NCBI GenBank assembly: GCA_051294375.1
Contig: CM119266.1
Location: 22,419,114 to 22,483,113 of the forward strand
Direction of reading: 5' to 3'
Length of the DNA stretch: 64,000 nt
Source of the DNA: Paraspadella gotoi
Taxonomy: Eukaryota; Animalia; Chaetognatha
Under the pieces are notes generated by a model, which was given only the letters and a program-made list of their open reading frames with translations, was not told where the DNA came from and searched no databases. Below, piece by piece: positions 6,250 to 58,300 of the stretch (the stretch's first letter is position 1; each line of letters begins with the position of its first letter). Both the position numbers and the translations under genes were made by a program.

Positions 6250-6261
6250 AAGGAGAGAGAG

Positions 6262-6312
<51 letters not shown>

Positions 6313-6668
6313 AAGAGAGAGAGAGAGAGCAGAGGAAAAAAAAAAGTGGGGGGAGAAATTTATGAAGGCCCAGATTTTTTTGGCGAAGAATAAAAAATTG
6401 ATCGGGGAACAGTTGGAGGGATGATGGGGATTGGTGGGGTGGTGGCGGTGGGTGGGGTGGTGTGGTGGTTAGGAGTGACTTAGTAACGGAATTTCTTATC
6501 TTCGAAAGAATCGATTTGGTCGACTTTTCAATTTTATTTCTTGAGGGAAAAAAAAAAGTGAGAGGGGGATGGAGTGGGGAAGGAAGCTGATTGAGTCAGG
6601 GGGACCGGAGTTATTTTGTTTTATTATTGAAAAGTTTGGCCAATGGAAAATAGTTGGGATTAGTCAAC
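6250..6668. repeat. Near-identical duplicate of 17708-18139
   Basis: Shared GGAGAAATTTATGAAGGCC...TTAGGAGTGACTTAGTAACGGAAT...GGCCAATGG; the second copy starts at a ~25-N gap and differs by indels. Confidence 0.85.
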
Positions 6669-14640: not shown

Positions 14641-14899
14641 AAATATTATATATATTTTTTATTAAAATATTATCATTTTGCATACGCCCAATGGGATTTA
14701 GGGTTAGGGTTAAGGGTTAAGCGTCGCCCATAGTACATACATGAAAGAATGTTCAAAAAATTTTTTGTTTTTAAATTCTCTTAGTTTTTAAAAGCGGACT
14801 CGAATTCCTCATAAAAAATTGATATAAGAAAATATAAGTCTGAATTGAAAAATATTTAAATTAAGTTAGCCAAAAATTCAAAAAACTATGTGGAAAACA

Positions 14900-15012
14900 G
14901 GGGGTTTACGCCGCTCTACACGGTGTTACAGCTTTGATCCAAAGCTCAGGGACTTCTTATATTTGAAACGGTTCTGTCACTAACTCATAACAATCATTTA
15001 CCGTCGCTTTCA
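14900..15012 (+). mobile_element. Partial opposite-orientation copy of the tRNA-derived repeat
   Basis: GGTGTTACAGCTTTGATCCAAAGCTCAGGGAC...AACGGTTCTGTCA is a near reverse complement of 30455-30560. Confidence 0.75.
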
Positions 15013-17630: not shown

Positions 17631-20060
17631 AAAGTTGTTATCGAACATATTTCTAATCTGAGGGGGAACACACCATACCAANNNNNNNNNNNNNNNNNNN
17701 NNNNNNACGAGAGAGAGAGGAGAGAAGAGAGAGGAGAGAGAGATGAGAGAGAGGAGAAGAGAGAGAGAGGAGAGAGAGAAAGAGAGAGAAGGAGAGAGGA
17801 CAAAAAAAGTGGGGGGAGGAAATTTATGAAGGCCACATTATTTTGGCGAAGAATAAAAAATTGATCGGGGACAAGTTGAGGGATGATGGGAGGTTGGTGG
17901 GTGGGTGGTGGTGGTGGGGTGTTGGTGTTAGGAGTGACTTAGTAACGGAATTCTTATCCTTCGGAAAGATACGATTTTTGGTCTTCGATTTCAATTTTAT
18001 TTCTTGAGCCGGTAAAAAAAATAGTGAGAGGGGGATGGAGTGGGAAGGAAGCTGATTGAGACAGGGGCGGACCGAGTTATTTTGTTTTTCTTTATTGAAA
18101 AGGTGGCCAATGGGAAAAAAGCTTCTGGGGATTGAGTCAAATCGCGGGTCTGTAAAGATTATTATTTTCGAGATATTATTATTCGTTTTTGAAATGTTTA
18201 TTTTTTCTAGGGGGGACGGGCGCGGAGAGGGCGGGGGATTGGAGTTCGAAATTCAGCACCAATAAAACATCGAATCTTAGATTGTCGATCGGAAATTTCA
18301 CAACTTGATCTCACGAAAGAGAAGAACTCGGAATTTCCAAGGCCAATGACGTCGCACAGTCACCTCGATCACAGCTGTCACTTTCTCTCTCTCTCTCTCT
18401 TCGTCTCTCTCTCTCTCTCTCTCTCTCCTCGTCTTCTCTCTCTCTCTCTCTCTTCTCTCGTCTCTCTCTCTCTTTTCGTATACTTTTAACGAAATTACGA
18501 GACTTTTTTTTAATTAACGTCTTTTGACTCTGGTCGACTCTGACGTAGTTGATCGCAAGGGCCGATGGGCCGGGGTGGCAAGGAGGGGGGATTAGGGGCT
18601 GCCTGAAAGGGGCGGGGTGGTATGGGAATATTGCGGGTGCTGGGATGGTGGAGACGGTGAATGAAATGAACTAGAATGAATTGACTGATGATAATGAATG
18701 AATGAAGAATGAATAGTGAATGCTTCAATGTTGGAAAACAATGAAATAATTAATGATTAAATGATTGAATCAATAACTCTATGAATTTACCCATAACTGA
18801 ATCAATAAATATACACGAAAATAAATGAATGTAATAAAATGTGTTCCCATATATTTCTAAAATCCGTCTCAACAAGTTTTCTTTTTCTTTATCATCTTTT
18901 CTTTGACCCACTCTGCGTAGTTCCTTCCTTCCTTCCTTCCTTTTTCGTCCTTTTTATTTTTTCTTTTTTCTCTTCGTCATAATTTCTTTCCTTTTTTTTA
19001 CTCGTTTCTGGTTTTTGCTCTGAAGAAAAAAAGTTTTCGTCTACGGGCGACTCTTCCGACGCCGACCGTCAGAGGCGCTTCGGTCGTGAGAGGCTGTGAG
19101 AGTTTGTCGTTTCTGAAGTCGAAAGAGTTTTTATGGTGTCTTTGACCATCCATGTTCACATAATGCGTTTTCAGTGACTTTAAAACCAACCATAGAGATT
19201 TAGTTAAAGATAACACATAGGATATTTTGATCCATGAGACAGATCATCTTCAGGGAAGTCCCATGTGTGATCTTTACCCAATTCTTAATCTCAGTACATG
19301 TGATGACTTTATCGCCATCCGCGACGTCTGTCCTCGCCGCATTGCGACTCTCCTCGGCGTCATTTTCCCGACACAACGAGGCGCCACTTGTCGCGCGTTG
19401 CGGCGCCTTTTCCGTCGAAAACGAGCGCCACCGGAATTTATGTTTTGACGCCGCTTGTGACGTCGCGTTGGCGTCGACGTCGAGGACGGAAGAGGGCCTT
19501 CCGACTTTTGCCAATTCTTTTTTTTCGCTTCAAATTTTCAACAGAAAAAATATTTTTGGCAAGCATTGACAGATTGCTTTGTTTCGGGAAAACAATATGG
19601 AATTGTTTTCATCCAGTATACCCCTCTTTAGTGGTAACATTTTAACTTTTTCAAAAAATAGATATTATGTTTAAATATTTAAGTAAGACCTTCGCTGAAT
19701 TTGTACACTCTTGCAAATATTTGTTTATAACCCACTATGGCAACAGCTTGTGATTCCCATTGGGATGGGGAATCTCACTGTTGGCTTTGGGGGCTGTGTG
19801 AATATACAGCCACACCACGCTATATATTTAACATATTTATTATTATACAATATACATTTTGTACTGGCCCCCAAAAATGAGGGTAAAAGTGAAAGGGATT
19901 CCGTGGCGGAGGTGGAAAAGCGAGAAAGTTGACAGCCTTTTGTTAGAAAGCTTTTTGCATGAGACAGAAGAATGAAAAAAAAAGAAAAGAAAAAAAACCG
20001 AGAGAGAAAATGGCGTCTTCGAGAAAAGACAGTTTTTGAAGATTAAACTGAGAGAAAAAG

Positions 20061-29486: not shown

Positions 29487-30454
29487 CGAGGAAGCGTTTC
29501 ACTCGTTGTCGACTCTATTATTAATTATTTGCTTTCTTTGCTTTGACCACGGATTCATGTTTGGCCGTAAAAATAAATCCTTGTGCGTTGAAATCCTCGC
29601 TCAAACATCGATGACCTTACCACCATCACCTCCTCCTCATCCTCCTCCTTCTCCTCCTCCTCATTTTTTGATGTCTGGGTTTAAACCGTCACTTTTCTCA
29701 GTTCTTGTACTTTTTTATTTTCACTTGTTGCTTCGATTCGATCCTCGTTTCTTTTTTTTTCTTTTTTTTTAAATTTTATTTGACCTCCGTTTTTATTATT
29801 TTTCTTTGGGAATTTTATTTCCAGCTTCGATGCACAGTTTTTTGAAAATGAAGGAAGTCCCAACGGATTCGAACCATACTCAAGTCGCCCGTCAACGAAG
29901 AAGACTGCGTTCGTCCAGAGGAATTGGAGAGGGTAGGAGGTGGAGGAAGCCGTTGGCGTCAATTATAAAAAGGAAAGGAGGTGGAGATTGACGCATCGGC
30001 TACGAGGTGACGCAGCCGTCGGTCACCGGTGACGGCGAACTTTTAAGTTTCCTCGGCGCCGAAAATTCAGCGAACCTCAAGAGGAAATTCGAAAAATGGA
30101 AAAGAAAAAAAAAAAAAACCCACAAAAATCAAACCGCGGAAGCTACGATCACCTGACGTGGGAAAAATTACAAATGAAATCGAGGTGAAAAATCAAATTG
30201 GTTGTAAATACGTTTTCTCGGCCTCATTATTACGGACTAAAACTTTTATCCCGATCGGTTTTTAATGTTCTAGATAGCATTCCTTTTTGCTTTTTATCGA
30301 CATTTATTACAAATTTACTTTGCAAAGAGATTTTTGAAGTTTATTTACTCTTGCGTGTATAATTTAAATGTATAGAATTGTTTTAATTTGATTTAGTTTT
30401 TGTCACGCTAATTCTTTAAATTACTTTGTCTCAATATTACCATATTAATAGTAA

Positions 30455-30690
30455 TGAAGAGACAGCAATTATTGATAAGTGTTAATGACAGAACCGTTCA
30501 ATATAAGCAGTCCCTGAGCTTCGGATCAGGCTGTAACACCATGTTACAGGCGGGTTAAGCGCCCCGTCCCTCTTAACTGCCAGACGACCACCGGGCTAGA
30601 ACCCCGGACCTTTGGGTTGGGAGGCGAATGACTTGCCTCCGGCACCAATGGCCACTGATGAACGGTTGGTGGATTTTAGTCCACCATAGT
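30455..30690 (-). mobile_element. Dispersed ~235 bp repeat with a tRNA(Gly)-like core, subterminal inverted repeats and a terminal hairpin
   Basis: Minus strand 30653-30585 reads GGCCATTGGTGCC...TTCGCCTCCCAA...CCGGGGTTCTAGCCCGGTGGTC (tRNA-Gly-like anticodon arm, B-box). AACCGTTCA (30492) and TGAACGGTT (30659) are inverted; hairpin at 30667-30686; at least 3 other copies or fragments in the window. Confidence 0.7.
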
Positions 30691-30780: not shown

Positions 30781-33700
30781 ATGAAACGCCTCGCCAGAGT
30801 CGCCCTGATTATTGCCTCGTTCAACTTCGTCGCATCCCTGCTCCCGTCATCCGCAAATTCGGACTTCTCAAAGACCGGAACCAATCTGTCCGCAGCCGCA
30901 CAGATCTCTTCGAACGGCTCCTCGGTGCCCGATCTCCCAATTACTTTTCTCCACGCCTCCAAATGCGTCGCCGTCACCGTCAAAGAAGTCATCTACGAAG
31001 AGAACGGTTACGTGACGATTCCGTGGTCGCGATATCTCGTTCCCCAGTGGACGCGGGCTTGGCTGGCACTGGGTGACCAGCATTTTCTTTTCGACGGGCA
31101 AGTCGTGAGAGACGAACACATCGCTCTTTTGGTGGAATTCGTCGATGAATTTCGGAGAGAATTGAAGGAAATGTTGAAGGTTATCGGATATCGTTTCGCC
31201 GAACAGGTGAGTTAAAATTTTTAACATTGCAAAAGAATGAAATACATACTAACTACAGGCACGCGAAGGTTTTTGGCACCTTTGATTATATATTTCGATT
31301 TTATATAATTCGATTTTCGGGCTGAACTAATGAGGATTGTGATTTTTTTATGTTTTGAGGTTGCTAATCACGATTTAGTGTAAAATCATTTATTTTGTTA
31401 TAATTAAACCGTTATCTTCCTAGAATTGCACTCGCGACCATTGGAGTCAAAAAATGAACGCCGACTTTGTACTCTTCGACAACGAGGACGAACCCCAAAC
31501 GACCCAGGTCCTCACCTCCTTCGATTTGAACTACGGCTGCCACTTTGACGCGTCGCTCGCGATCGACGAGTCCCATTTGCTGCTCAATAAATCTCTGGTG
31601 AATTCTTTCCTGCGGCACGTGGCTCCCGCTTACGTGGGTTCCGGAGGGCCAGACCCCGCCATCCGTGACGCGTCCGCCATGGTTACCAAGTTGCCAAAGA
31701 TTCTATACGCCGATGAGATAGCCAAATGGATCTCCGATGATGAGGACGGTTATGAAAGTACGTTTTTATATGCATTGATCGAATTTACTACAAATTTCTT
31801 ATTACCCACGTCTTTTTGACAACTTCGCTTAACTTTATTTTAATTTAATTTAATTTTATTTTATTATAAACTCATTAAAAAATTTATTCAAATTTAGCTG
31901 AAACCTTCGATGACCTATTTCTTTCGCGTTTTGAAGAAGACGAATTCATTGAACAAATTATCGACTACCACGAGCTCTCCCGATTTTTGAAAGAGCGCTT
32001 TGATAGGATAACCAAGCTACTAAACAATATTGGAAGCGCCGCTTTGAACCACGCCTTAGTCTATTATCAGCCAGAGAAGACCTTGAGCAACTCTAAGCAA
32101 CTCAGGTAACGTTGTACACAAAAAAAAATCGTATATAGTACTACTTATATACTATCGCTGTAAAATAAAAAAATCGAATCAAATTTCAGGTCATTAATTC
32201 CATGGTCGAGCGACGATCCTCTAGGCGATCATCTCATCTTCGCCGCCAACTATCCTCGCAACGTCTTCGCCGACAAAGACTCGTTTCTCGACGGCTTTCT
32301 CGACGACATAAATGTCCATCCCGTAGAGATCGACGGCGAAACGACAAAGGCGCGCCTCCTCGTGACGACGCCGAACCTCTTGTCGCCACCCGCGGGCCTT
32401 TTGTTGGAGATAACGTCTCTCGACAACGTTCACTTTCTTCGTGACGGTCATTACGTAAAGATGAGTGACTCGACATCCGCTCCGACGCGAACGATGATCG
32501 ACCTTCGTGACGTCAAAGATTTCAGCCTCGATCGGTTAAACGACTCCGAGTATCTGGCCAGATTGGCGCGCAACAACGCGACGCGCGTGAGGTTGGATCC
32601 ACGCCGGTATTGTCGTTACCGGTATTTGCCCGGCGAGCAGCGGAGGAAGCTTTTTTGCAACTTTGCCCTGGAGGAGGAAAGACATCAAAGTTTTCGTAAT
32701 TCAACCCAAGGCAAATATATTTATGCTCAGCTACGGTGCGCGGCGACCATTTTGGAGACCATGGATCTAGAACCGTCCTCAGGAGTGGAAGAGCAACTGG
32801 TAGAGGCTTGTAATACAACAGCCGCGTTTGACTTTGAAATGGTTTACAAAGCTAGACGCTTCATGGCCTATTCGCCGACGGGATTGTTAGCGATGACCGA
32901 TCGCGAGTTTCGGTAAGGGAGAGTTGGAGCTGATTGGATAAATGAAATAAATCATTCAATGATTGATTCGTTAATTCCTTGATCTAATGTCTGTAATGAT
33001 TCAATTATTGGTTTTGCGTAATTTTGATTCGTTCTCAGTCATTAATTTATCCATTTACATATCTATTTCTTTCAAGTCTTTCTTTCATTAATTTAATAGT
33101 AATTTCAATATTAATTTTTTCAGTTTTGAATTAATAGTTAAATTTTTTTTGGGTTAATTTTACTTTCGCCGACCGACTTTAATGTTAAGGGTAGTTATGG
33201 AGTAGTTTAGGATTAGGGTTATGAGGGTTTAAGGTTAAAATAATAATTGGTTTAAAAATAAATATTTTTAAGTAAAATAGTAAAATAATAAAATTTTATT
33301 TATATTTTTCATAATCTTTTATGCTTAATTTAATTCAAATATTTTTGGCGTGATTTTATTTTCCCTTTTAAGGTAAAGTAAATTAATAATTAATTTTTTA
33401 ATAGTTTTAAAAAAAAAACCCCAGTCGTCGAAAGTAAAATTTTACCCTATTTTTTTTCACCCTAGATTCAATTCCATTCTAATTATTCATCAGGGCAACG
33501 CGTTTCACCGGTTTCGATACTTTACTGTTGTCCGAAGCGGAAGCAACCGGAATGCATTGCATCCACGTGGATCGAAACGAGTTCATCCAAGTGACTTTCA
33601 ACGACGACCAAACTTTCCTCTCGCCGTTGGAGCACGAGGAACGACACTTCTCCACCCGTTCCACCGTACAATCGGACGGCCATTTCCGTGATCCTTCAAG

Positions 33701-35374
33701 CGCAGTTAACGTGAAACGGGATCGCTTCACCGTAGTTCGGAGACTCCCTGTTCCGGATTTGGTTGCGTCGCTTGAGTTTAGCCTCGCGAGTCACTTTTTG
33801 CGATTCATTTTTTTTTTCATCTTCGTCCAAAATTGCATTCTGGCGCATTATTTTCCCCTTTGGGCTATCCCGATGTTTAACGTCGTAATCATTTCTTGGT
33901 TAGTTGGTTATTTTCTAGCCTCAGTTAACCTAATATAAATTCATTTACATTCCTTGTTTTACACCTGATTCTTTCCCCTCGTTTTAATGTACGTATTCAT
34001 ACAAAAGTATTTTTAAATTATCTGTATTCAGAGAAAACGTACCCTTGCATTAATAAAAGTGATAATATGCCATGAGGCTTCTTTATACACGCTATTTGGA
34101 TTAGTGAGAATTCGGCTTTAAAGAAAAGAAAATATTTTGATTTCCAAATCATTTTCACTTTTTATTTCGCGCTCTCAATCGCCCGCAGTTCTAACGAATG
34201 ATTTTTTGGCACTATCTACTAAATCCAATCATGAGTTATGTTGAAGGAAATCACTATAATTAATGCCATTAATGGTGGTTTTTACTTAAAAATAAACTTA
34301 ACAACAACATTATAAATCAGTTTGGAGTCTATACTAACAATTTGCCCTGTATTTTTCTCTCGCCAGACGGGCGAATAATTATTAAGGTGGAGTGATAAAA
34401 AAATTAAGCAATTAAATATTATTTTTTTGCTGCTTATGGATATATAATTAACAAATTTTAAATCCTTTTTAAAATTTTTTTAATATAATAGTGTAATAAA
34501 TTTAATTTTAATATAATTTTTTATAAAATTGTTAAATTTTAAAATATTTTTTTATTTTTAATAGATTTGGATTTATTGTAAAAAATTAAATTTTTATAAA
34601 ATATATCATATGATATTTTAATGTTTAGATTATAAAAAAGTTTTTATTATAAAAAATAAGTTATAAATTTTTTTTTAAATATTAAAGACGATAAAATTTT
34701 TAATAATATATTTTATATTTTTAATTTAATTTTTTATAAAGAATTTAAATTTTTAATTTTTAATATAAATATTTTGTTTTAACAAAATATATTTTTTTAT
34801 TAATTATATTATTTTGTATTAAAAATCGTTATTTAATCATGTAAAATGATTTTTATGTTTAAATGCTTTATTTTAATAATCATAAGAAGTTAAGAATTTA
34901 AATATAGTTTTTAATCGGTAAGATTTTTTAGATTTATGTTTTATATTTTTTCACTCATTTGTTTGTTATATTTATAAAATAATTTTTCTATATATAAACG
35001 AGTTCAGATTTTTAGCTTTTTCTTTTAATGTTATATTATTAATTTATTATCATATATCATTCATTTTTTTTAGGAATTTTTTATTAACTTTCTTTGATAG
35101 TAACGTCTGGCGAGATCACTATACTTTTAAGATTTGAATGAATAGGAAATCGACCAAGTCAAAAAGTCAACCAAAAAATCATTTTCTCATTAAAATTATT
35201 GAAAGCTGCGCTATTTCTTTTAGGTTTATCGACGACAGTCTTCGACCCAACTTCGGCATTGAACCATTTTGGTGGATTTACTTCGCTCTCTTTCGAGCGG
35301 CTGCTTTGTTATGGTCCTTCATATTTCCGCCCTTGCCGCCAAGAAGGGAAGAAACTATTCTGCGACGCGGTTAA
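30781..35374 (+). CDS. Uncharacterised signal-peptide + ectodomain + C-terminal multi-TM protein, paralogue 1 (~748 aa; 6 exons)
   Basis: Exons 30781-31206, 31424-31757, 31898-32105, 32190-32912, 33494-33898, 35224-35374; all GT-AG with consistent phases. N-terminus MKRLARVALIIASFNFVASLL. Aligns along its length with paralogue 2. Reading exon 5 through to the stop at 33938 gives an alternative 711 aa form. Confidence 0.85.
33151..33447. mobile_element. MITE with ~23 bp imperfect TIRs and internal telomere-like TTAGGG variants (intron 4 of paralogue 1)
   Basis: GGGTTAATTTTACTTTCGCCGAC ... GTCGTCGAAAGTAAAATTTTACCC; related ends at ~8683, ~15340-15361, ~16343 and 63371-63537. Confidence 0.75.
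34358..35115. mobile_element. Extremely AT-rich MITE-like element with perfect 12-bp TIR
   Basis: TCTCGCCAGACG (34358-34369) and CGTCTGGCGAGA (35104-35115) bracket an almost pure A/T interior. Confidence 0.65.
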
Positions 35375-35597
35375 AACTGAAATCTATTTTTGCCTGTTAA
35401 TTTTTTTGGCATCAGTTTTAATACTTTTATGTAGTAATGTACTTTTTATGAACGTTCATGTCCTGACTTGCTTCATTTTTTCTATTTTATATGTTATGAT
35501 ATAAGAAAAATGTTCTTATTTTGTTTTAAGAGAATCGCGAAATAATATATAAATCCATGGATTGCTAACAAAACTGAAGGATCGATGATCAGAGAAG

Positions 35598-38500
35598 ATG
35601 TATTATTTTCGAGGGAACATTGACCTCGTACTCGTTCTCGCAATCTCCTCTCTCTGCCATTGCTCGACTCAAAATTTCGAATCTGTCCTCGACCCTGATG
35701 CCAAAATCGAGTCAACCGGATCCGATGATTCTCCAGAAACTTCTTCAGGTCCTACTTCAGAATCAGAGATATCAATATCACTTGAAGCAGCTTCCGATCA
35801 AGTTTCTATTGAAGAGACGAAAACCGAGGGTAATTCAAAATCGGCTGATGGTGCACAATCGATCGATAGTGCTGCTCACTTCCATCCTTCATTTTCTGGC
35901 CCTCCGTCATTCTCTCATAAGATAAAAGAAATTATTGATACGATTTACACTGTTTCTTTCGGAACTCAATTTTATGAAACTGTAAAAGTAACAGCCTTTG
36001 ATGCACCTCACATCTCTGACATAACATCTCATTTGGACATTAATCTTTTCGAATCCTCGTCATCGCTCCAATCTTTTCATGACTTTTCTTACCAATCGTC
36101 TCCCGATGCTTCTGCCCAATCATTTCCTGACGTTTCTATCCAATTGGCTCGTGACGCTTGTCCCGACGCTTCTCCATCAACGAAAGCGTTTCCACCATTG
36201 TCTTCGGACTGTTCTTTACAATCTACTCTGACATCATCTGACATTTATCCATCTTTCGATCCTGATCGCCAATCATTACTCGACTCTTCTCTCCCATCCC
36301 TGGAAGCTTCTTCCCAATTAGAAATCGATATTAGTAAATCCACAAGCGAAACGATTGATTATTCAACAGTCATATCAAAAGCGACTGAATCAGCTGATTT
36401 TTCTGAAACCAATTTTCATTCACGTTTCCTAGAAATTGCTCGATCCAACGGTATTGCGAATCCTGCGCATGCTCTGCCGGTATCAGACGAGCGTTTGGAC
36501 GATGCAACATCTCCAGCTGAGGATGATTCCCCATCATTTCCTGAACACGCGTCGTCCACCAATACTCTGACTTCGTCTAACTTGCCGGCATCAACCTCAG
36601 AAAATTCCGCGGGCATTGATGAAACGTCGACAGACAGCTATGAAAGGATATCTACCTACTCGTTAAAGAAATTATCTCCCGACACCTTGGAAACACTATC
36701 TCGCGATATCTTAAAAATATCTGACGCTTTTAAACCGATTTTTGGAGAGAATCCTAGCTCCCATGATGCGTTAAATACTAAAAAGAGCTCAAGAAAATCC
36801 CACAAAGGAAAAGTTGTGAATGAAGTGGACGAAGATCTTGACTTTCCCAAAACCTTCCTTCATCGGTCAAAATGTTGCGGAATCACCGTGAAAGAGATTG
36901 TCTACGAGGAGGACGGTCACGTGATAATTCCATGGACCAGAAAAATCATCCCTGATTGGATGTCAACTTGGTTGAATCAACGTAAACCACAAGACTATCA
37001 GCCCGGAGATATGCTAGATTACTCGGTGTCAACGGCAATAGGTTTCGTCAGAGAGGTTCGAAACCTACTGGTTAAAACACTCAGCTTGGCCCAAAACGCC
37101 AAAAACGGAACGACGTCGGTAAATGTATAAAAAAAAAATTACATAATATTAATGTGATTTCAGAATTTTTAAATATTAATTTAATATGACAAACTTCAAC
37201 ATAAATTTAGATATATTATATTATATATTTAGTTTATCTAATTTTCTTTACTAAACTCTAATAGATATCAATTTTTTTCCCTCAGAACTGCACATCTGCT
37301 CAATGGAACCAATTTTTTCCCGTGGATTTTATCCTCTTTGATAATATGGATGAGCCTCAGAAGGCAAGCCTACTTTCTTCCGAATGGGGACTTGAATACC
37401 CTTGCTTTTTCCGAACAACTCCAAACGATACGGAACCCGATAAGCTTCAAATCCAAGCAGTCGGCAACTTTCTTCAGCGAGTGACTCCGATCTATGAAGG
37501 GTTCGGCTTTCATCATCCTGTTTTTAACGACGCCGCCGGCCGCATGGTCGCGGACGCCTTTGTTCGAAGCTCGCTCGAATCTTGGGACGTCGACTCGATC
37601 CACGATTGGGTCTTCCGCAATATTCGGCAGCCTAAAGAGCCTTTCGACGAAATGTTTATTACGGAGATCGACGAGAGAGAATTTTTCGGTCTCATGGGCA
37701 AAGAAGACATATTTTCAATTTTTTTACAGAGGAAGGGGCAGAAAATGGAAGAATTTATTAAACAGATTCAAGTGGCTCTTCTACTCAATGGTAATCTTAT
37801 ATATCATCGTCAAAAAACGATGTGGCCTCCTGATTATGACCACCCGAACCCATTTTTCGGTGGAGTTCCATTCAGGTTAGTACTAATTGTTGATAACATA
37901 GTACATAATACTCAGTTCTTTTTAAGTGCCTTATCCTCGGCTAAAATCTTGGGTTGGTGGTGAATGTGGGGCGAATGACTAGCGTTCACGATACGCCGTG
38001 CCTGATCCAAACAGATGTTTCTTATTTGTCTAAAACGAATTAATTGTGAATCGCGTAAGCGATGAACTATATAACTGGTCATTTTTATCTCGCCCGTCTT
38101 GGCGTGATTTTGGTTCGCCTCTGCTTCTTTGTGACCGTAGTCGTCGTTGTCGTCGTCACGCTTCTTACCATTGTAAATTGTTTTCTCTTTTAATTATATG
38201 TCGCTCTCTATCTCTTTTCCGTCGCTGCTTCTTCTGATTCGTCTAAAACCGAATTAAGCTCTGCAGCGGCTGTCCAGTTTCTCTATCTTTTTTTAGCCGG
38301 ATCTGCTTATCAGCAAATTCAAGCTGCATTAATTAATTATTAATAAATAAGTAATTAATTATTTGTAATTAATTAATTTTGTTATCGAGATTGTTGTTTT
38401 GTAATTAAGAGGCGAGACTGGAAAACGATTTTGACACGAATAAACAAAATTAATATTAATTAATTAATTACTTATCGTGGGCAGATCCGGCATTGTTTGC

Positions 38501-41222
38501 TCAAACTTGTTTCTCTCTCTCTCAATCATACACGCATTTGTTTTATTTACGAAGAATGACTCATCGCATCAATGAATGACTATCATCGCATCAATGAATG
38601 ACTGCCATCGCATCAATGAATGATTATTATCGCATCAATGAATGATTATTATCGCATCAATGAATGATTATTATCGCATCAATGAATGACTATCATCGCA
38701 TCAATGAATGACTATCATCGCATCAATGAATGACTATCATCGCATCAATGAATGATTATCATTGCATCCATCATTTTGTTATCATCGCGTGAATATTTGG
38801 TTATAATCGCATCAATAGTCAATTACTATTACATCAATCAATCAATTACTATTACATCAATAAATCAATTACTATTACATCAATCAATCAATTACTATTA
38901 CATCAATCAATCAATTATTATTGTATCAATCAATCAATCACTATTGTATCAATCAATTACTTTTGTATCAATCAATTACTTTTGTATTAATCAATTAATA
39001 TTGTATCAATCAATTAATATTGTATCAATCAATTAATATTGTATCAATCAATTAATAGTATCAATCAACAATTAATATTGTATCAATCAATTAATATTGT
39101 ATCAATTCAATTAATATTGTATCAATCAATTATATTGTATCAATCAATTAATATTGTATCAATCAATAATATGTATCAATCAATTAATATTGTATCAATC
39201 ATTAATATTGTATCATCAATTAATATTGTATCAATCAATAATATTGTATCAATCAATCAATATTGTATCAATCAATCAATTACTACTGCAAAAGTATTAT
39301 TTTTGGTTAAAAGTTAGCGAGAAGGTGACCCTAACCCAAATATCGTGTTCAAACTTGTTAAATTAATGGTTTATTTTACGTAGGTTGTACTAATTTCATA
39401 ACTGATTAACTAGTTTATTAATATAACCTCTTATCTCAGGCTGTGGTCATTGATATGGAAATCAGACGACCTCGTTCGCGACCATCGAATCTATTCTAAA
39501 CATTTTCCAAGCACCGTCTTTGCCGATTGGAAAGTATTTAAGGACTCCTTTCTCGGCGACATCAACGCGCATCTGATCTACATGAACGCCAACACGTCGC
39601 GAACGCGATTGTTGCTGACTCTTCCTAATTTGCTGAGTCGCCCCGTTGGCCTCTCGTTAGAAGTGACTTGCTTACGCAGCGTTCACCTTCGCGACGGTCA
39701 CTACATGGCGGAGTCGGCGGGGGTTTTGCCGCTGAAAAATGTCTTCCTCGATCTCCGGGAAGTGACAGATTTCGACGCCCAACGTTTGAACAATGCCTCC
39801 TATCTCGGTGAAATGTTGCGGCACAAGGACGCTCGGTTGCAGCACTCGCCGCGTCGGTTTTGTCGTTTCCGTTACTTGACCAAGAAAAGTGACAGGAAAC
39901 TCTTCTGCGACTTGGATTTGGCCGAAAGACGATTCATAGAAGCCGGGTTGATTTTCGACGACGCCGCCGACGACGAGGTTTCCGTGTTGAAGGTCCCCGA
40001 CGACGATCCCGACGCCGATCCGGAAAATGGCGACGACGGCTTTGCGAACGTAAAACTCTCGACCAAACACAAGAGCGAACACAAAGAGCAGCGCGAAACC
40101 CCGCTGTCCGAAGAGGAGGAACGAAATGAACGACGCGAGACTCTCGAACGAAAAGCGCGAATCCGCGTTAAGATTAGATGCACTAACGCTCTCTTGCAAA
40201 CCCTTGACGTTGAACCTTCGAAAGAGGTAGACGATAGACTCAGCAAAGCCTGTAGGATGTATTCGTCCTACGAAGTATCGTTGCTGTACGAGGCTAAACG
40301 TGAGTCTACTCTCACTCCGACGGGATTGTTAGCCGTGACGGATCAAGACTTTAGGCGAGTATTAACCGATGAGTTTAAAATATTTGATATAGTTTTTATT
40401 AAGATTTAGTCAGTTCTTAATTAACTTTTTGAATAAACAACAACTTTGACAAAATATGACCAAAACTTTTCTCAGATTCTATTACTTTTCACTTGTTTTT
40501 AGCTTACATGGAGGCCTTGAACCACCAAAGCCAGGGGCAAGATAGCTTATTTATTAAATGAATGGAAAATTTTTATATTGGTTGTACCAATTTCATGTAC
40601 AACGTTAAATTATAAACTTTTAAGTAATTATTTAAATCCAAAATGAAAAATATCCATACAAAAGTAATTTTAATTATTTTACTTTTACAGCGCAACGAAT
40701 TACGATAAAATTGAATCGAAACTGGTCAACCGCACGGACCCCTTGACCTCTCACTGCGTTCACGTGGATAAGAACGAGTTTTATTACGTCACCTTCAGCG
40801 ACGACGAAAAGGTCGATCCGTACGTGAAAACTGAGAGAATTCGTTCCACGACCACTAACAAACCGATCCCTAAGCCCAAGAAAAAGCATCGCTTGGTCAA
40901 CGAAAAGTCGACGCGCGGAAGATCCAAGACTAGAGCTCAAAAACTCTGGGTCCCATCTTCCATGGCGAAGCCTAAGTACAATTCCGAAGACTATCCCTGG
41001 AGAATTTATTACTTTACAAAGTATATCAGCCAGCTCGAAAAGGAAACCGTCGTCTTTCTGTGGATTTTAATTTTCTTTGGCAGTTTATATTGCTTCTTTT
41101 ACATTGTTGTGTGGGGAATCGATTGGATGAATCTAAATATTAACATAATTGTTCATGTCCTTGATATGATGGAAAGAATATTTTTGGTTTTATTTTTCGC
41201 CGTGACGCCGCGTAGGGATTGA
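35598..41222 (+). CDS. Uncharacterised signal-peptide + Ser/Thr/Asp/Pro-rich region + ectodomain + C-terminal TM protein, paralogue 2 (~1185 aa; 4 exons)
   Basis: Exons 35598-37118, 37286-37875, 39440-40354 (GC donor), 40691-41222 in consistent phase. Motifs shared with paralogue 1: TFLHxSKC...VKExxYEExGxVxIPW, DFxLFDNxDEPQ, RLLxTxPNLLSxPxGLxLE, HxxRDGHY, PRRxCRxRYL...KLFC, PTGLLAxTDxxF, HCxHVDxNEF. Confidence 0.88.
37938..37985 (-). mobile_element. Degenerate fragment of the tRNA-derived repeat
   Basis: CGGCTAAAATCTTGGGTTGG...GGCGAATGACT resembles 30592-30634. Confidence 0.45.
38296..38491. mobile_element. Small MITE (perfect 11-bp TIR) in intron 2 of paralogue 2
   Basis: GCCGGATCTGC (38296-38306) and GCAGATCCGGC (38481-38491) with an AT-rich (TAAT)n interior. 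Confidence 0.65.
38554..38770. repeat. 21-bp minisatellite (ATCGCATCAATGAATGAYTAT-like unit)
   Basis: About 9-10 near-perfect tandem copies. Confidence 0.92.
38809..39282. repeat. ~19-bp minisatellite (TCAATCAATTAATATTGTA)
   Basis: Many imperfect tandem copies; explains the repetitive YQSIN ORFs. Confidence 0.92.
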
Positions 41223-41490
41223 TATTGCCTACCGCCGGCGGCTTTACATGTCATTCTCTGTATTAGTTATTTCATTGAAATTGTCAACGAAAAGCCTCAT
41301 TTCTCATTCCTTTTTTGGATTTTCTTTCCATGACACGAACATATTTATTTCGCTGAAATAATTTTACGTATTGTTCGTTATTTTTACGGTTTTTATACTA
41401 CATTTATGTATTCTTGCCTTATTGCCTATTCCGAATTCGTGTTCTTATCAGGACTGCTTTAAACTAGAAAAAAACTTAACTTACGCCAGG

Positions 41491-44281
41491 ATGAAAATCT
41501 GCGTGACTCTTTATGTGATCCTTGTATCCAACGCCATCGCCGCCGAACGTTTCCCGGGCTCCGACCACGACATCGACGCTTTGCCGGACGATTATTCCAT
41601 CATTTCCCACGAAAACCAATTCTGCAGTTACGAAATCAACGACTCTTGTTCGAGGCCGAAAATCGGCGACACTTTCGGCGTACCGTTCGATCACGTGAAC
41701 GATCCCGTCTCGGATTGTTCACCGTCGGCATATCGCTTCGCCGATCATCGCTGCTCCCAATTTCAACTTGGCGAGTGGCTCTACGAGCTGGACGGTTACG
41801 ACGCCCGCGCTGTCAAAATCACGATCCCACCGCGGCCTGGGCTTGGGAGTCCGGGGGGCTTGGGTGCTTGGAGAAAAATGATGAGAGAATTGATCGACGC
41901 GATCGAGACATTTAGAAAGGAGGCGGCGAACAATGGATGGTGCGACGAAGACGGCGGCGACGAACTCTTTGTTCTGGGGGAGGAGTCACGAGCGGGATCA
42001 GACCAAAAGCTCAAAATCGACAGGTTTGACCGCATTACTCTTTTACTTTTATGGGTCCTTTTATTTAGTTTTAATTTGTGGTTTTTCATCCAAATCTATA
42101 AAAGTATATAGCAGATTCTGACTCTACGATACTCTTTGTCGGTCCTACTCCAAAAACTTTTTAAATTTTTAAATTTAACATTTTTTTTCTATTTGCAGGT
42201 CGGTTGCTCAACGACACGACATGATCGGCTGCTTTTACAAAAAACCGGAGGTAAGACGCCTCGCTATGGGCGTTCGTCGTAAAGTAAAAACAACCGTCGA
42301 TCCATGGAGGTGGTCGAGCTTTCTTCGATTCGCCACTCCAGTATTCAGCGAAGGCAGAGACGGCGTAACGACTTGGACTCCGGACGATAGACCACGTCTC
42401 GTCGAAATTGATGAAATCGATGGTGTCAGAGACTGGATCTATGATCCTTCAAAGCTGCCAGAAGTCATCGAGCTGAACTTTGACGACATGACCGATCCTG
42501 TTTTGTCCGATTGGGTGGACATTCTTCTACGAAACCTCGTTTCTGAGATCATCTCTCAGAATCGAAGCATCGCTCGTTCCCAGACCAACGGTTCGTGGTG
42601 GAGCCTGTTTCCGGAGCAAGAAATCTTCCCTTCGGACGAGGTATTGCAAAGTTCCAAAGACTTGAGGCCTTACGTCGTCAGCGTCGATATAGAAAAGTTG
42701 GAGATCGTTCTTCTGCTCTCACGGCGGAGAATCATGAGAAAACCTCGCGGCTTCGTGATCGATTGGTTGGGTCATCCGCCCACTGTGACTAAATCCGGCC
42801 GATTTATTCGGCCCAAGAAAGACGAGGACTTTAAGTATTCTCTCTACGTCCAAGTGTCAAACTTGGATGTCGATCAAAATAGAATGAACGACGATCACTA
42901 CCGAAAAGATCTCGTTATTTCGGGAAAGACCTCATTGCGTTGGATGTCACTACCCCACTGCAGCCCAGATGAACACGACGAGATTCTATGCGACTTCGAC
43001 CTCATGGCGAGAAACGTTTCGATCGATCGTCTTGGCCTCGACTCTTTGCTGCGTTGCTTGGAGGAGACTATGAAGACTATGATTATGAACAAAACTAACA
43101 GCACCAATACGCCCCTTTTGGATTCTTGCGTATTGACGGACGCCGGAGCGGCCGATGCCTACGCCTCCTTCGATATTTTCGAAGGCTTTCAAGTTCAAAC
43201 TCGCGACTTGATCGTCATCTTTAGCAACTTGGCGATTTTTGCCGTGAATTCAGTTGGCGTCAGCGAAATGCCAGCGGACCCCATGGGGCAAATAGGATCA
43301 GGGCTTTTATTAAAGAGTTACTGTTACTCACTGGAGACGAAAGGGTTGAAGGAAGTCACGATCGGAGACGCGACGGTTCACGTTGATCAGCGACCTCTTC
43401 CGAAGGAGAAATCTCGAATCAAAGAACACCGAGAGACGTTGACTGAGGCGGAACCTTCGGTTTCCATCGAACTCCACGACCCCATGGATGCGATCCTTTG
43501 GATCCCCTACTTTATATTTTTGTTCTTGGTCGGAGTCGTCCTTTACTGGGTAATGAAGTCTAAGACCCCGACCGAGACGCCATCGCGAAGAATTCCGGAG
43601 AATCCGAGGTTTCGATCGAGAAGGACGACGACGACGATGGAACGCTCCCGACTTCGGCATCGACGGATTCGGCAAAATCGGGAACTGTCATTGGCGGATG
43701 ATGGAGGGGTATTTAGTAATGGTAAAGAAAATAAGGTTAATCAAAATGAGAGAGAAATAGACGATTTGAAGGATAGTATTACGCGCGCAATTATTTCTAA
43801 GGCTGAAGAATCGTATCGTATCCTCAAAGCATTTTGTTTTGGGGTCAATGTGTTTCAATACCTTTTTAAATTATTTATACTTATTTTGAAATATTCGTGG
43901 AAACTTTCTCGATTGCTATGTGGCGTTTTGTGTACATTTATTAATCTTTTGTCGATAACGTTTAACAAAATTAAATATAATAAGCTCGAAAAGGTGCCGA
44001 CGACATCTCGAGAAAATTCCCTCTATGAGAGCCCTGCGTCAATAAAATCTGTCACCGACGATGACGACGACGATGATGATAGCGATGAAGATGTCGATAT
44101 AGTCTGTCGCAATTGCAATCTGCGCGAGATTGTTCCTCGATCTTTCCATACTTGCTTTAAATGCATCAACGATGAAAGATGGACGCAGTCTTGGATGTAC
44201 TACTGCTCCAAGGAATGCTGCAAGTTCGACTGGAGGCACCGACATAAGATCGAGCATGTTCAGAATGAAATTAAATGCTGA
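41491..44281 (+). CDS. Uncharacterised signal-peptide + ectodomain + TM protein with C-terminal MYND-type zinc finger, distant paralogue 3 (~871 aa; 2 exons)
   Basis: Exons 41491-42023 and 42199-44281 (phase-2 GT-AG intron). Signal MKICVTLYVILVSNAIA; TM ILWIPYFIFLFLVGVVLYWVM; acidic run, then CRNC-x12-CFKC...YYCSKECCKFDWRHRHKIEH. The ectodomain shares the motif order of paralogues 1 and 2. Confidence 0.88.
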
Positions 44282-50831: not shown

Positions 50832-51012
50832 GCCGCTCTCTCTCTCTGACAGAAGCGTAATTCTCATTCAAATTCTTTAGCTCGTGAACGGGGATCACCA
50901 TGTTAAAACGGATCAACATGTGAAAGAGTCACGAAGACGAAATAGGCTGACAATGGCCCCGATCGTGACCCCTACAAAGTTGGTGTTCCCAATAGTGGTA
51001 GCGCCTGGCGTA

Positions 51013-54000
51013 GCATGAGCGATAGGGGCTCGTTTGGGATTGTTTTTAGTCTTTAGACTTTTAAGTGTACTTCGTGACGAAAACCAAACGTCGCTATAAA
51101 AACCCACGTTTTATTTATATCGTTCGAATTAAACTTTAAATGCTTAATTAGTAAATATTAATTTTTCCAAAAACACTTTCACCCCTTCACTGATTGCGAG
51201 ATGATGGAAGGTAGAAATCGAGAAAGAGGGTGAGTAGGAAAAGCAAATATAGCGATGATGATGACGGAGAGGAGGAAAGCGAGGAGAGGAGGAGGAGGAA
51301 GAGGAGGAATTCCAACTTTCCCTCCCAAAATCCCTCGGTTCTTTTGTTCGTTTCTCCTGAATTTCGTTTGTCTCTCGACTCCGATGCCATCTGCGCCATC
51401 TTCCCCCCCCTTCGCATTTGAGGGCGTGGGTGGAGGAGTGGTCTAGGGTGAGACGCAAGGAGTGCACGGTTTATGTTTTTTTTTTAAAAAGAAATTTAGT
51501 GTGGTGGAAGATGTGGCTGATGGTAGGTTGTGGTAGTAGCGCCAAAGAGAGTGGTCTTTGTGGTGTCGTTTGCCGGGGTGATTGGTGGACTTCAGAGCTA
51601 AATGGGCGTGGTTTATGGGGTGTTAGCGATTGGGGACGGCGATGGGTGTTTCTGGCGCGCGAGGGCGGAAAAAAGGATCGCGAAAGAACGGGGTGCGCGC
51701 ACACGTTTGGTGCCTTTGTCAATTTCACACGCAAACCGGTTCGTTGCACGTGCCAGTCTCAATTCTCGACGCCAATTTAAAAGGAAGAAAAGGAGGGAGG
51801 AAAGGTTCGAGAGGAAGGCGGTAATGCTGAGTGGATAGTGATCGTTGTAATAATGTAATAATATAATTATTATAATAGTGTTATAATTCTTCATTATACT
51901 TTTCTTTTCTCCTTCCCTCTTTCTTTTCTTCTTTCCTTTTTCCTCCACATCCTTCTTTCTTTCTCTGGCCGCCAATACGACCCTCACTGTAGTCGCGGTC
52001 TCATCTTGCGTTTTTGGCGCCCGAGTTCGGATTCCTGTTCAACACACCGTTTTTTTCTCCTCACCAATATTCTCCCTCTTTTCCCTTTCTTTCACTTTCC
52101 TCAAAAGATAGAAGCACAGCGATAGAGAAAAAAATTATTCCTCAGTTCGTCATCGATCTCATTCTATATTTTTCTCATAAACAATAAGAAAGAATTATTA
52201 TGCATTTTTAATTTTTGAATTTACAAATTCTTTTTTTTTTTAAATTACTCTCATCTAACCCCTCGACTTTGCCTCCGAAAAATTCTCTCTAATGAGTTCT
52301 CCGAATTACTCTCTCTTTTTNNNNNNNNNNNNNNNNNNNNNNNNNNNNNNNNNNNNNNNNNNNNNNNNNNNNNNNNNNNNNNNNNNNNNNNNNNNNNNNN
52401 NNNNNNNNNNNNNNNNNNNNNNNNNNNNNNNNNNNNNNNNNNNNNNNNNNNNNNNNNNNNNNNNNNNNNNNNNNNNNNNNNNNNNNNNNNNNNNNNNNNN
52501 NNNNNNNNNNNNNNNNNNNNNNNNNNNNNNNNNNNNNNNNNNNNNNNNNNNNNNNNNNNNNNNNNNNNNNNNNNNNNNNNNNNNNNNNNNNNNNNNNNNN
52601 NNNNNNNNNNNNNNNNNNNNNNNNNNNNNNNNNNNNNNNNNNNNNNNNNNNNNNNNNNNNNNNNNNNNNNNNNNNNNNNNNNNNNNNNNNNNNNNNNNNN
52701 NNNNNNNNNNNNNNNNNNNNNNNNNNNNNNNNNNNNNNNNNNNNNNNNNNNNNNNNNNNNNNNNNNNNNNNNNNNNNNNNNNNNNNNNNNNNNNNNNNNN
52801 NNNNNNNNNNNNNNNNNNTCCTCCTCCCCAAAAGCCTAAAATCCCTCTGGAATCTGACTTCAAAGTTGCCATTGTTTCGTCCTTGTGTCCCCGTCTCATT
52901 ATCATTCTCTACAGAGAGAGAAATACAGCGATGGCGATAGCAATGAGCGATAGGGGGCTAGTTTGGGATTGTTTATATATTTTAAAGATGTACTTCGTAG
53001 ACCGAAACTAAGTCGCTAATAAAACAACAAAATATAATATGTATAATTAAACTTTAATGCTTAATTAGTAAATTTAATTTTTCCAAAAACACTTTCACAA
53101 CCTTCACTGATGCGATAGATGAGGTGAGGTAGAAATCGAGAAAGAGGGTGAGTAGGAAAAGCAAATAACCAGTATCGGATACGAGAGAGGAGGAAAGGCG
53201 AGGAGTAGGAGGAGGAGGAAGAGGGAGGAATCCAGAACTTTCCTCCCAAATCCCCGGTTCTTGTTGTTTCAGTTTCTCCTGAATTTCGTTTGCTCTCTCG
53301 ACTACGATGCATCATGCGCCATTTACCCCTCGCATGGAGGGGTGGGTGAGGATGGTCTAGGGTGAGAACGCAAGAGTGCACGTTTATGGTTTTTGTTTTA
53401 AAAAGAACTGTAGTGTGGGTGGAAGATGGTGGACTGATGGTAGGTTTGTGTAGTAGCGGGCCAAAGAGAGTGGCTTTGGTGGTGTCGTTTGCACGGGGTG
53501 ATATTGGGTTGGACTTTCCAGAGCTAAATGGGCGTGGTCCTTATGGGTGTTAGCGATGGAGGCGATGGGTGTTTTCTGGCGCGCCGAGGGCGGAAAAGGG
53601 ATCGCGAAAAGAACAGGGTGCGCGCGACAGCGTTTGGTGGCTTTGTCATTTCACACGCGAAACCGGTTCGTGCCACGTGCCAGTCTCAATTCTCGACGAA
53701 CAATTTAAAGAGGAAGAAAAGGAGGGGAATGGAGAAGTTCGATGGAGAAAGGCGGTAATGTGCTAGAGTCTGGATAGTGATGGTTGTAAAAATGTAATAA
53801 TATTGTAGATAGTCGGTTATAGATTCTTCATTATATTTTTTTTCTCTTCCTCTTTCTTTTCTTCTTTCTTTTTCCTCCACCATCCTTCTTCTTTCTCTGG
53901 CCGCCAATACGACCCTCACGTGTAGTCCGCGGCTCATCTTGCGTTTTTGGCGCCCGATTCGGATTCCTGTTCAACACACCGTTTTTTTCTCCTCACCAAT

Positions 54001-54205
54001 ATTGCTCCCTCTTTCCCTTTCTTCACTTTCCTCAAAATAGGAAGCATCTAGGTCAGATCAGAGATATAGCTAACATTACTATATTCATAAGCCAATAAGA
54101 AGAATTATTATGCATTAATTTTTGAATTTACAAATTCCTTTTTTTTAATTACTACTCATCTAACCCCTCGACTTGCCTCCGAAAAATTCTCTCTAATGAA
54201 TTTTC
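51013..54205. repeat. Two near-identical ~1.3 kb copies (51013-52310 and 52941-54205) flanking a gap; 52819-52910 also recurs at ~54620-54735
   Basis: Colinear with frequent single-base indels; separated by the N gap 52321-52818; probably redundant gap-fill. Confidence 0.85.
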
Positions 54206-55395: not shown

Positions 55396-58300
55396 TCACA
55401 AATGAGTCAGCTTCGGAGGCGTGGAGAGTCCGCCGTTGTACCCGGCGCCCGCCGCCACGCCTACCGCCGCCGGGGCGCCAACCCCGTTTCCGCCCTGAGC
55501 CATGGAACAATAGGAATTCGGCAGATGCTGATTGGCCGCTGGAGGAGGAGGAGGAGCGGCCGAGGAGACGGAAGGAGAGGGGGAAGAGGAAGAGGAGGGT
55601 GGGGGTCCGTGCCCGGGACCGCGGGACATGGGAGAGTTTCCGTGGTGCGGGTGATGATGATGGGGCGGGCCGCTCATGTGGGGGTTGTTCATGAGTCCAC
55701 CGGCGCCGCCGCCGCCGCCGCCGCCGACGCCGCCGCCCAGGTTCATGTGGGCGTAGCTGACGCCGATCGTTGGCGGCGAAGGAGAGTTGAGTCCGGCGTT
55801 GTTGTTCTGCGGGAAAACGTCGAAGCAGCTGATCTTATCAAAGATTGGCGACTGTTGGTTGCGATGCTGTTGCTGCTGTTGCTGCTGCTGATGTTGCATG
55901 GCGTGGTGATGATGCTGATGTTGTTGCATCTCTTGATGGTGCAGCTGTTGATGTTGCTGTTGTTGTTGCTGTTGTTGATGGTGCTGCTGTAGATGATGGG
56001 GATAGGCGACGCTCGGATCGGCGCCGCCCACGTTGACCAGCGGAGGGATGGAGACGAGGAGCGGAGGAGGGGAGCAAGACTCCAGCTGGTGATGGTGGAG
56101 CAGACCGTGCGACGACGACGACGACGGCGACGAAATCGTCTGAGGCGACGACATGTGCGTCATCGGCGCCGAGTAACCGGAAGTGGCGATCATGGAGCGC
56201 TGGTTGGGCGCGGTGAGGGCGTCTTGAGGGGTCTGCATCTGGGATAANNNNNNNNNNNNNNNNNNNNNNNNNNNNNNNNNNNNNNNNNNNNNNNNNNNNN
56301 NNNNNNNNNNNNNNNNNNNNNNNNNNNNNNNNNNNNNNNNNNNNNNNNNNNNNNNNNNNNNNNNNNNNNNNNNNNNNNNNNNNNNNNNNNNNNNNNNNNN
56401 NNNNNNNNNNNNNNNNNNNNNNNNNNNNGAGAGAGAGAGAGAAAGAGAGAGTTAAAAGGAAGTTTGGAATAATTTGAGTTTTATAGAATTTAAGCTACGG
56501 TCCTGCACTTGTACAATTCTTAGAATTTTAGTTATTTTTTTGAAATAATTCTTTAGAGAAAACAAAGTTTGTTTGTTTGTAAACAACGATTTTATTCACA
56601 TTGGACATGTTTCGGCTCTTGCCTTTAAGCCTTCATCAGCCTTCATCATTCTAAAAAAGAATCATACTAAATTTGTAAAAAATATTTTTTTTACAATGAA
56701 TACAATTTTTAAACGTTTTTAATTTTTCAATAAAAACATTTTTTTACTGACATCAGAGTTTGTTTCTTTCGATTCGTTGCGAATATATGTTTCGGCAAAT
56801 GAAAGAAAACAACTCAGCCGAAAAATGTTCGTTTATTTCGGAAATAAACTTTGTCGTTTTTGTTAACAAATAAAAACGTACTTTTCCGTCTCATAATAAT
56901 AATTTAAAAAAATAATATATTTTTTCTTTGACCTCACCTGCGGGGATCCATTGATGAGAGACATATGCGAAGATGGATTGGATCCTTGGGTGACGCACGT
57001 TGAGGCCGGGGTGGGGCTAGAAGGGCGGTTTCCGCCCACACCGGACGGGGTCAGCCTCTGGGGGTGGGGGTAAGCGTGCCCAGCGGGCGGTGGAGTCGAA
57101 AACGGCGAGAGCGGAGGATTTCCGCCGTTGGCAGCAGCCGCCGCAGCCGCAGCCGCCGCGAACTGCTGCTGAAGCTGTTGCTGCTGCTGATGCTGACGAG
57201 CGTTGACGATCTGTTGGTTGCGGATGGGGGAGGCGCCCGGAGAGGATTTGGGCTGACCGCCGCTCGTCGCTCCGCCGCCGCCCGCTCCGCCCACGCCGAC
57301 ATCCATCCCGTGGACGAGGCCGGATAATCCCCGCAGCCGACCGCCGCCGCCGCCAGCAGCAGGACTGCCCGCCGACGACGCCGACGACGCTGGCCCTTGG
57401 CCGTTGACTTTGAGCGGGTTGGTAGCCTGACAAAGGAAAAGAGAAATCTATTTAGTTATAATTATTACATTTAGTACTCAATTTCCGGCGCCTGATTGAA
57501 AGAAAGAGCGGTCGAAATTTGGTTTTTATGGTTTTCAGACCGTGACGGTGGCAGCGGCGTAGCAGCGCTTCACAGAACCGTGACAGCACGGCCGAATCGA
57601 TCGTCGCGATTCGCCCTATCGGTTTCACGGTCAAAAGAATCCTAAAATCGGCCAGAGAGAGAGAAGAGAGAGACGAGAGGAGAGAGAAGAGGAGAGAGAG
57701 AGAGGTAGGGAGAAGTAACTAGAAAATCCTTGAGCAAGAAAGAGAACTGGCATGAGAGGAGATCGAGAGAGAGAGGAGCAGATGAAGCAAAAACATAGAA
57801 AAGGAAAGAACTATCCTGGAAAAGACAAGGGCGGATAAAACACGAGAGAGAGTTACCCATCCCTTACTCTCAAGTCTCCGCCGATCAGACCGTTTTCGAG
57901 CATGACGTCAAACGAAACCGGATTTTGTCGATCCCGAGAAGATCGGAATACGGCACGCCGGGAATTTGGGATTCCTTTCTGTTAACTGGGCACTTTTCTC
58001 TGAGTCGGCATGAATAAAGAATCACAAATCTGAAGCGTGGAAAGACGCGGTATGAACTGTTACGCGAAAAACTTTATGGCAAATATTAAGCCCCGAGTTT
58101 TGTGTGAGCGAGAAGTGAGGGATGGGATATAGGGAAGGTGGGAGAAAGAGAGAATAAGAGAGAAAATAATGAGGGAGAGGAAATAAAAAAGAGTTATATT
58201 TCACAATAAACTAAATAAGGCGCTAAACCTAAATCGCTCGCGTTTTGTCCTGAAAGTTGAACAAGGAATTATTTTTTGTAAATTATGGTCAGTTGTTATG

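Follow-up and report, generated by a model that had tools for sequence, protein, structure and literature searches.

Three tandem paralogues for predicted membrane proteins in the arrow worm Paraspadella gotoi, one ending in a C6H2 MYND-like finger

In a 64,000-nt stretch of the arrow worm Paraspadella gotoi genome (GenBank assembly GCA_051294375.1, contig CM119266.1, positions 22,419,114 to 22,483,113 of the forward strand; hereafter the window), three same-strand (+) genes, here called P1, P2 and P3, occupy positions 30781-44281. Comparison of their predicted proteins points to a real and apparently undescribed family built on a shared domain of about 600 residues. We tentatively read the three as paralogous predicted type I membrane proteins, either receptors or adhesion-type molecules, in which proteins of the P3 type may relay to the cytosol through a C6H2 MYND-like finger. 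The locus had been singled out in an earlier note made from the sequence alone, whose coordinates agree with the P1 ATG and the P3 stop and whose 18 quoted motifs were all found, in the order given.

By direct alignment, P1 and P2 are clear paralogues: they share 35% identity over 488 aa (E 1e-75) and 30% over 220 aa in a second block, three of their introns agree in position and phase, and each of the eight ectodomain cysteines of P1 has a counterpart in P2. P3 has no intron position in common with either, and its direct alignment is weak (blastp E 0.001, 19% identity); the P1/P2 profile gave P3 a score of -0.5 bits, which several of 1000 shuffles surpassed, hhalign gave 2.6%, and the P2-P3 local score was equalled by 54 of 300 shuffles, while the P1-P3 global score exceeded all 300 (z 7.8). 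The link was made through an outside homologue, P0001 (905 aa). A phmmer search with P3 exon 2 against 1.84 billion representatives returned seven matches, of which P0001 (E 2.3e-14) was the only one to cover the shared domain, the other six matching the finger region only. Because P0001 was found with P3 alone, it provides a fair test of the bridge to P1 and P2. Its alignment scores against P1, P2 and P3 were 146, 114 and 237 (shuffle maxima 64, 60 and 65), and the P1/P2 profile scored it at 35.4 bits (best of 1000 shuffles, 2.2). The profile alignment of P3 to P1/P2 that had been set beforehand as a test was not significant when made directly, whereas through P0001 the P1/P2 and P3/P0001 profiles aligned at 97.3% in hhalign (E 2.3e-11, 192 columns). 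The significant block spans approximately P1 residues 362-570; the first P3 motif block matches P1/P2 by eye only, since P0001 lacks that block. Five cysteines are invariant in the four sequences, and paralogues inside the family are 18-35% identical. The earlier claim of one family therefore stands, directly for P1 and P2 and by way of P0001 for P3, and the sharing of an ectodomain holds as well, although its size, put at ~550 aa, comes to ~590-630 aa in P1 and P3.

The layout of P3 recurs outside this genome. In P0001 the shared domain leads into a membrane region, then a charged tail and the finger's first half; P0003, which matches P0001 at E 7e-9 in a 12-protein set, carries a membrane region, a similar juxtamembrane stretch and the full finger. 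The layout of P3 is thus conserved outside the P. gotoi genome. P0001 to P0004 are all unnamed singletons. The known range is narrow, with one ectodomain homologue among the 1.84 billion representatives searched with P3 exon 2; the negatives behind the earlier label "lineage-specific" are weak, word-index searches having missed P0001 although it was in the collection and in the length range.

We next consider the finger at the C terminus of P3, which had been called a MYND finger. It follows the MYND C4-C2HC order at seven positions, and at the eighth a His (H864) replaces the Cys in 7 of 7 aligned sequences, in which the eight predicted ligand positions and a Trp (W856) are invariant. P3 reached 11 bits on Pfam zf-MYND (PF01753; cut-off 22.7); among the seven phmmer matches P0002 passed (23.8 bits), five scored 16.8-22.2 and P0001 gave no match. 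Six Cys and two His in MYND-like spacing are also the hallmark of zf-C6H2 (PF15801), for which P3 exon 2 gave no match at E up to 1 (gathering score 30), the best relative reached 18.4 bits, under that cut-off, and P0003 came in at E 0.0025. The best match of the finger profile in the Protein Data Bank (PDB) was the METAP1 C6H2 finger (E 0.011), with DEAF1 and ETO weaker. Judged on spacing and profiles, the P3 finger is a C6H2 variant of MYND, nearest that of METAP1; what survives of the earlier assignment is a MYND-like finger on the predicted cytosolic side, and not a canonical MYND.

The METAP1 finger (PF15801; PDB 7sek, 9fq0) resembles that of P3 in its six Cys, two His and MYND order, with all scores under the curated cut-off. 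In METAP1, a soluble peptidase, the finger is N-terminal; in P3 it stands at the end of a predicted membrane protein and its insert is longer. With the MYND domains of DEAF-1, ETO/CBFA2T1 and BS69/ZMYND11 (PF01753; PMC3555993, PMC6172302; these and the other papers cited here are used in excerpt) the P3 finger shares the Cys spacing and the Tyr-Cys, Asp-Trp and His-Lys positions, and differs in its last ligand (His instead of Cys) and at the MYND Gln position, which is Cys in P3 and five of the six others and Ala in P0006. MYND domains bind PXLXP or corepressor peptides by packing the Trp on a ligand proline, BS69 through PXLXP (PMC3555993), and the zebrafish Bs69 MYND binds the cytosolic kinase domain of the receptor Bmpr1a (PMC6172302). 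Those MYND proteins are soluble regulators docking on receptors in trans, in contrast to a finger built into a predicted membrane protein. In a literature search with most subscription literature outside its reach, neither a membrane protein with a MYND finger tail nor the P1/P2/P3 family was found described. The same His-ended finger was also seen without the shared domain in unnamed proteins and in one Lottia gigantea protein (among P0002, P0004, P0005 and P0007), so this finger subtype is mobile.

All three spliced models are open through to the stop. P1 has five exons (711 aa) as first modelled and ~748 aa with a likely sixth, P2 has four exons (1185 aa) and P3 two (871 aa); introns are GT-AG with one GC-AG, and are AT-rich (GC 0.25) next to GC-richer exons (0.46-0.51). 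The features are as follows.

30781..31206, +, P1 exon 1: predicted signal peptide, then the first part of the shared domain; homologous to the end of P2 exon 1 (tblastn E 4e-17)
31424..31757, +, P1 exon 2: the preceding phase-0 intron is common to P2
31898..32105, +, P1 exon 3: the preceding intron is absent from P2
32190..32912, +, P1 exon 4: best-conserved core of the shared domain
33494..33898, +, P1 exon 5: end of the shared domain, stalk and hydrophobic membrane segment; putative donor at 33899
35224..35374, +, likely P1 exon 6: another hydrophobic segment (the second), followed by a PxLxP motif (PPLPP) and the stop
35375..35597, +, P1-P2 spacer, 223 nt: pyrimidine tract and an AG at ~35530, a candidate trans-splice acceptor
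35598..37118, +, P2 exon 1: predicted signal peptide, ~370-aa Ser/Thr/Pro-rich acidic stretch and start of the shared domain
37286..37875, +, P2 exon 2
39440..40354, +, P2 exon 3: conserved core, which here holds a charged insert of 77 aa; X1 contig 1 covers this exon
40355..40690, +, P2 intron 3: GC-AG, matching P1 intron 4 in position and phase; a 336-nt skip in X1 contig 1
40691..41222, +, P2 exon 4, coding part: basic stalk, predicted transmembrane helix, amphipathic helix and stop; the contig extends to 41434
41223..41490, +, P2-P3 spacer, 268 nt: acceptor-like AG at 41488-41489 just before the P3 ATG, suggestive of trans-splicing
41491..42023, +, P3 exon 1: predicted signal peptide, then the first part of the shared domain
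42199..44281, +, P3 exon 2: remaining shared domain, predicted transmembrane helix (aa 609-629), basic tail, amphipathic helices (aa 722-766), acidic run and finger
44105..44257, +, C6H2 MYND-like finger of P3: predicted zinc ligands C814, C817, C830, C833, C847, C851, H860 and H864, plus W856

P2 has the 77-aa charged insert, and the region earlier called "mucin-like" is a low-complexity stretch rich in Ser/Thr/Pro (36%) and acidic residues (16%) without an N-glycosylation sequon. Two tandem arrays were observed at the locus, one of 19-23 nt units in P2 intron 2 (38554-39276) and one of 29-30 nt pyrimidine-rich units downstream of P3 (44763-45719).

P1, described earlier as compact, is probably extended by the exon at 35224-35374. 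Read unspliced, the frame of exon 5 stops at 33938 and this end of P1 looks intronic, whereas 35224-35374 is a GC- and CpG-rich island (GC 0.49) running from a good acceptor to a stop, with a codon score of 28.4, whereas none of 984 intron windows exceeds 12.8. Its three frames score alike (28.4, 25.2 and 25.3), and we chose the one whose stop lies where GC drops; the match of the exon to the P2 end was not significant, being reached by 493 of 2000 shuffles. Joined from the putative donor at 33899, this likely sixth exon would bring P1 to ~748 aa. Among P1, P2, P3 and nine outside proteins, only this likely P1 tail holds a PxLxP motif.

The three genes are likely co-transcribed as an operon, as suggested by stop-to-start gaps of 223 nt between P1 and P2, a value that depends on the putative exon 6, and 268 nt between P2 and P3. 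In run X1, which is likely RNA, one 4171-nt contig spans P2 exons 3 and 4 without the 336-nt GC-AG intron between them and stops at 41434, only 56 nt before the P3 ATG; it shows three differences from the P2 coding sequence, two of them silent. With regard to the transcripts that the earlier note asked for, P2 is thus spliced at one intron in a likely-RNA contig, and P3 has no contig cover. The contig holds 2512 nt before P2 exon 3 compared with 2111 nt of coding sequence in the model, and the extra 401 nt, if colinear, would take the contig over the spacer and through the likely sixth exon of P1, an arithmetic fit to a two-gene precursor that does not prove one transcript. According to the excerpted literature, arrow worms have 18% of their genes in operons, defined by gaps <250 bp (PMC12460157), and spliced leaders of ~36 nt (PMC2481426). 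Like these trans-spliced operons (PMC2481426, PMC12460157), P1-P3 lie on the same strand with very short spacers and acceptor-like sites before their start codons; the operons described so far are rich in housekeeping genes, whereas P1-P3 would make up an operon of paralogues for predicted membrane proteins, and no leader was seen in it. A candidate promoter of the cluster lies at 29890-30160, where TGACG/CGTCA occurs six times in 270 nt, compared with 1.8 per kb for the window, alongside a TATA-like word. A 72-nt stretch of P2 intron 3 (40525-40596) is matched by >100 X1 contigs with a summed depth >170,000 and ends in a hairpin, probably an abundant repeat or small RNA.

The same cluster could consist of ordinary tandem duplicates that have drifted apart and work separately, its arrangement recording duplication history and no complex, which we consider somewhat unlikely. 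Such clusters would be common given the burst of tandem duplication in arrow worms, with up to 2,250 phylum-specific families (excerpts of PMC12460157), and P3 shares no intron position with P1 or P2; yet spacers <270 nt give little room for separate promoters, and the P2 contig reaches to within 56 nt of P3. This alternative touches assembly only, and is compatible with the family and the topology.

Signal peptides were judged by eye, with an n-h-c pattern that is typical in P1 and P3 and weaker in P2. The membrane anchoring proposed earlier is supported as a prediction: residues 609-629 of P3 make up a predicted strongly hydrophobic, low-moment helix with basic residues after it, and P2, P0001 and P0003 likewise have a low-moment hydrophobic helix. 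The membrane region of P1 is longer and harder to interpret. In P2, P3, P0001 and P0003 the hydrophobic stretches beyond this helix have a high hydrophobic moment; they are more probably arranged along the membrane than across it, although they may be additional helices. The domains of P1 (8 versus 3.5 expected, p 0.012) and P3 (6 versus 2.2, p 0.015) hold more sequons than expected, and the P3 tail has 0 versus 2.1 expected. These sequence features are best read as a predicted type I topology that puts the finger in the cytosol.

With the same topology, the proteins may instead reside in the endoplasmic reticulum (ER) or secretory pathway as lumenal scaffolds, chaperones or lipid handlers, with amphipathic helices that bind ER or lipid-droplet membrane and a finger that recruits cytosolic chaperones or ubiquitin machinery. 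This would suit the amphipathic cytosolic helices in four members, the acidic inserts, and the Arg-x-Arg clusters of the P3 tail, to which we presume a retention role. The six TGACG/CGTCA words within 270 nt upstream of P1 are in keeping with it too, one of them reading TGACGTGG, a type of word that we take to be an unfolded protein response element. The Atlas neighbours of the P3 domain, clusters of the VPS13/Hobbit/Csf1 lipid-transfer proteins (0.90-0.92), lean the same way; this match is weak, the P1 core gives a different weak lead (RAG1-like), there is no Pfam support, and an extension as long and low in complexity as that of P2 fits a protein of the cell surface. In favour of ER residence too, arrow-worm operon genes, in the excerpted text, lean to housekeeping (PMC12460157). 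On balance we regard ER residence as unlikely.

Searches with the shared domain found nothing in Pfam at the curated cut-offs, and no match in NCBIfam, in PHROGs or, with single, two-sequence or six-row queries, in PDB sequences, which bears out the earlier remark that no known domain is recognisable in it. AlphaFold models of the domain were unusable (pLDDT 30 and 37), and fold searches were uninformative for that reason. In the Atlas, the bridge-like lipid-transfer lead has a recognition of 1393 (far under 2300) and 120-147 shared features (under 170), and it disagrees with the RAG1-like lead. Although bridge-like lipid transfer proteins (VPS13, Hobbit/BLTP2, Csf1/BLTP1) are the nearest named clusters to the P3 domain, they are cytosolic and far longer, whereas the shared domain follows a predicted signal peptide and keeps its cysteines. 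It is distinctly unlikely, in our judgement, that the newness is only apparent and the domain a strongly diverged member of a known secreted or membrane family beyond the reach of sequence searches: the low identity among the paralogues, profiles built on four sequences and the failed structure models would all permit this, against which stand the empty searches of Pfam, NCBIfam, PHROGs and PDB sequences. Descent from a viral or retroelement envelope or fusion protein, which has a similar size and layout (signal peptide, 600-aa ectodomain, one helix, zinc-binding tail) and would fit the exon-poor structure of P3 and P0001 over this region, is highly improbable given the conserved spliceosomal introns of P1/P2, the lack of a relative in viral contigs (searched for close relatives only), PHROGs or phage records, and the lack of a Pfam retroelement domain in the 25 flanking ORFs scanned.

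Under the receptor or adhesion reading, the signal peptide would direct the shared domain to the non-cytosolic side of the membrane, and there its cysteines would form disulfides; one true transmembrane helix would follow, with the amphipathic helices on the cytosolic leaflet. By analogy with other MYND domains, the P3 finger would bind proline-containing peptides, and co-transcription from an operon would mean that the same cells make all three proteins. Boldest of all is the proposal that they assemble, P1 and P2 as variant outer domains and P3 as the docking finger, possibly gripping the PxLxP of P1; a heteromer held by this contact is improbable. Equally a long shot is the complete scheme of a new heteromeric receptor with a new-fold ectodomain, encoded by a three-gene operon, in which short-tailed P1 and P2 vary the outer face and the P3 finger grips its partner's PxLxP and switches to cytosolic targets on ligand binding. 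The earlier suggestion that only P3 signals is plausible because the tails of P1 and P2 are short, with the amendment that the likely P1 tail with PxLxP may recruit partners.

Several observations weigh against the receptor or adhesion reading. The PxLxP motif lies in an exon whose join is putative, is absent from P2, P3 and the nine outside proteins, and was noticed post hoc. ETO and RACK7 MYND domains do not bind the PXLXP proteins in the excerpted study (PMC3555993), and because the P3 finger has a Cys at the peptide-contacting Gln of DEAF-1 and a longer insert, its specificity may differ. Arrow-worm operon genes are depleted for signalling functions in the excerpts of PMC12460157, and the 268-nt gap, stop to start, is just above the 250-bp criterion used there. 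There is no sequon excess in P2 (6 versus 3.7, p 0.15) or P0001 (4 versus 3.4, p 0.45), the amphipathic block of P3 sits elsewhere in the tail than those of P0001 and P0003, and no evidence favours the cell surface over the ER for the three proteins.

Elsewhere in the window, a repeated element at 30490-30690 (-) has tRNA-like A/B box look-alikes and a stable predicted fold, with copies near 14443-14641, 14918-14998 and 13740-13795, and no Rfam match. Exons at 55396-57447 and 60798-61184 (-) encode a poly-Gln/poly-Ala, Pro/Ser-rich protein resembling a transcription regulator, with no Pfam domain at cut-off. Local duplications of 83-96% identity pair 1-485 with 2355-2848, 6253-6667 with 17711-18140, and 51006-52301 with 52932-54205.

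Together, the family offers a predicted extracytoplasmic domain of ~600 residues without a recognised relative, which makes it a candidate for a new fold. MYND domains have been known from soluble receptor-docking adaptors, and P3 would be a membrane protein with the finger built in. Orphan gene clusters are numerous in arrow worms, and P1-P3 provide a concrete, testable example of the phylum-specific genes that have been proposed to underlie arrow-worm cell types.

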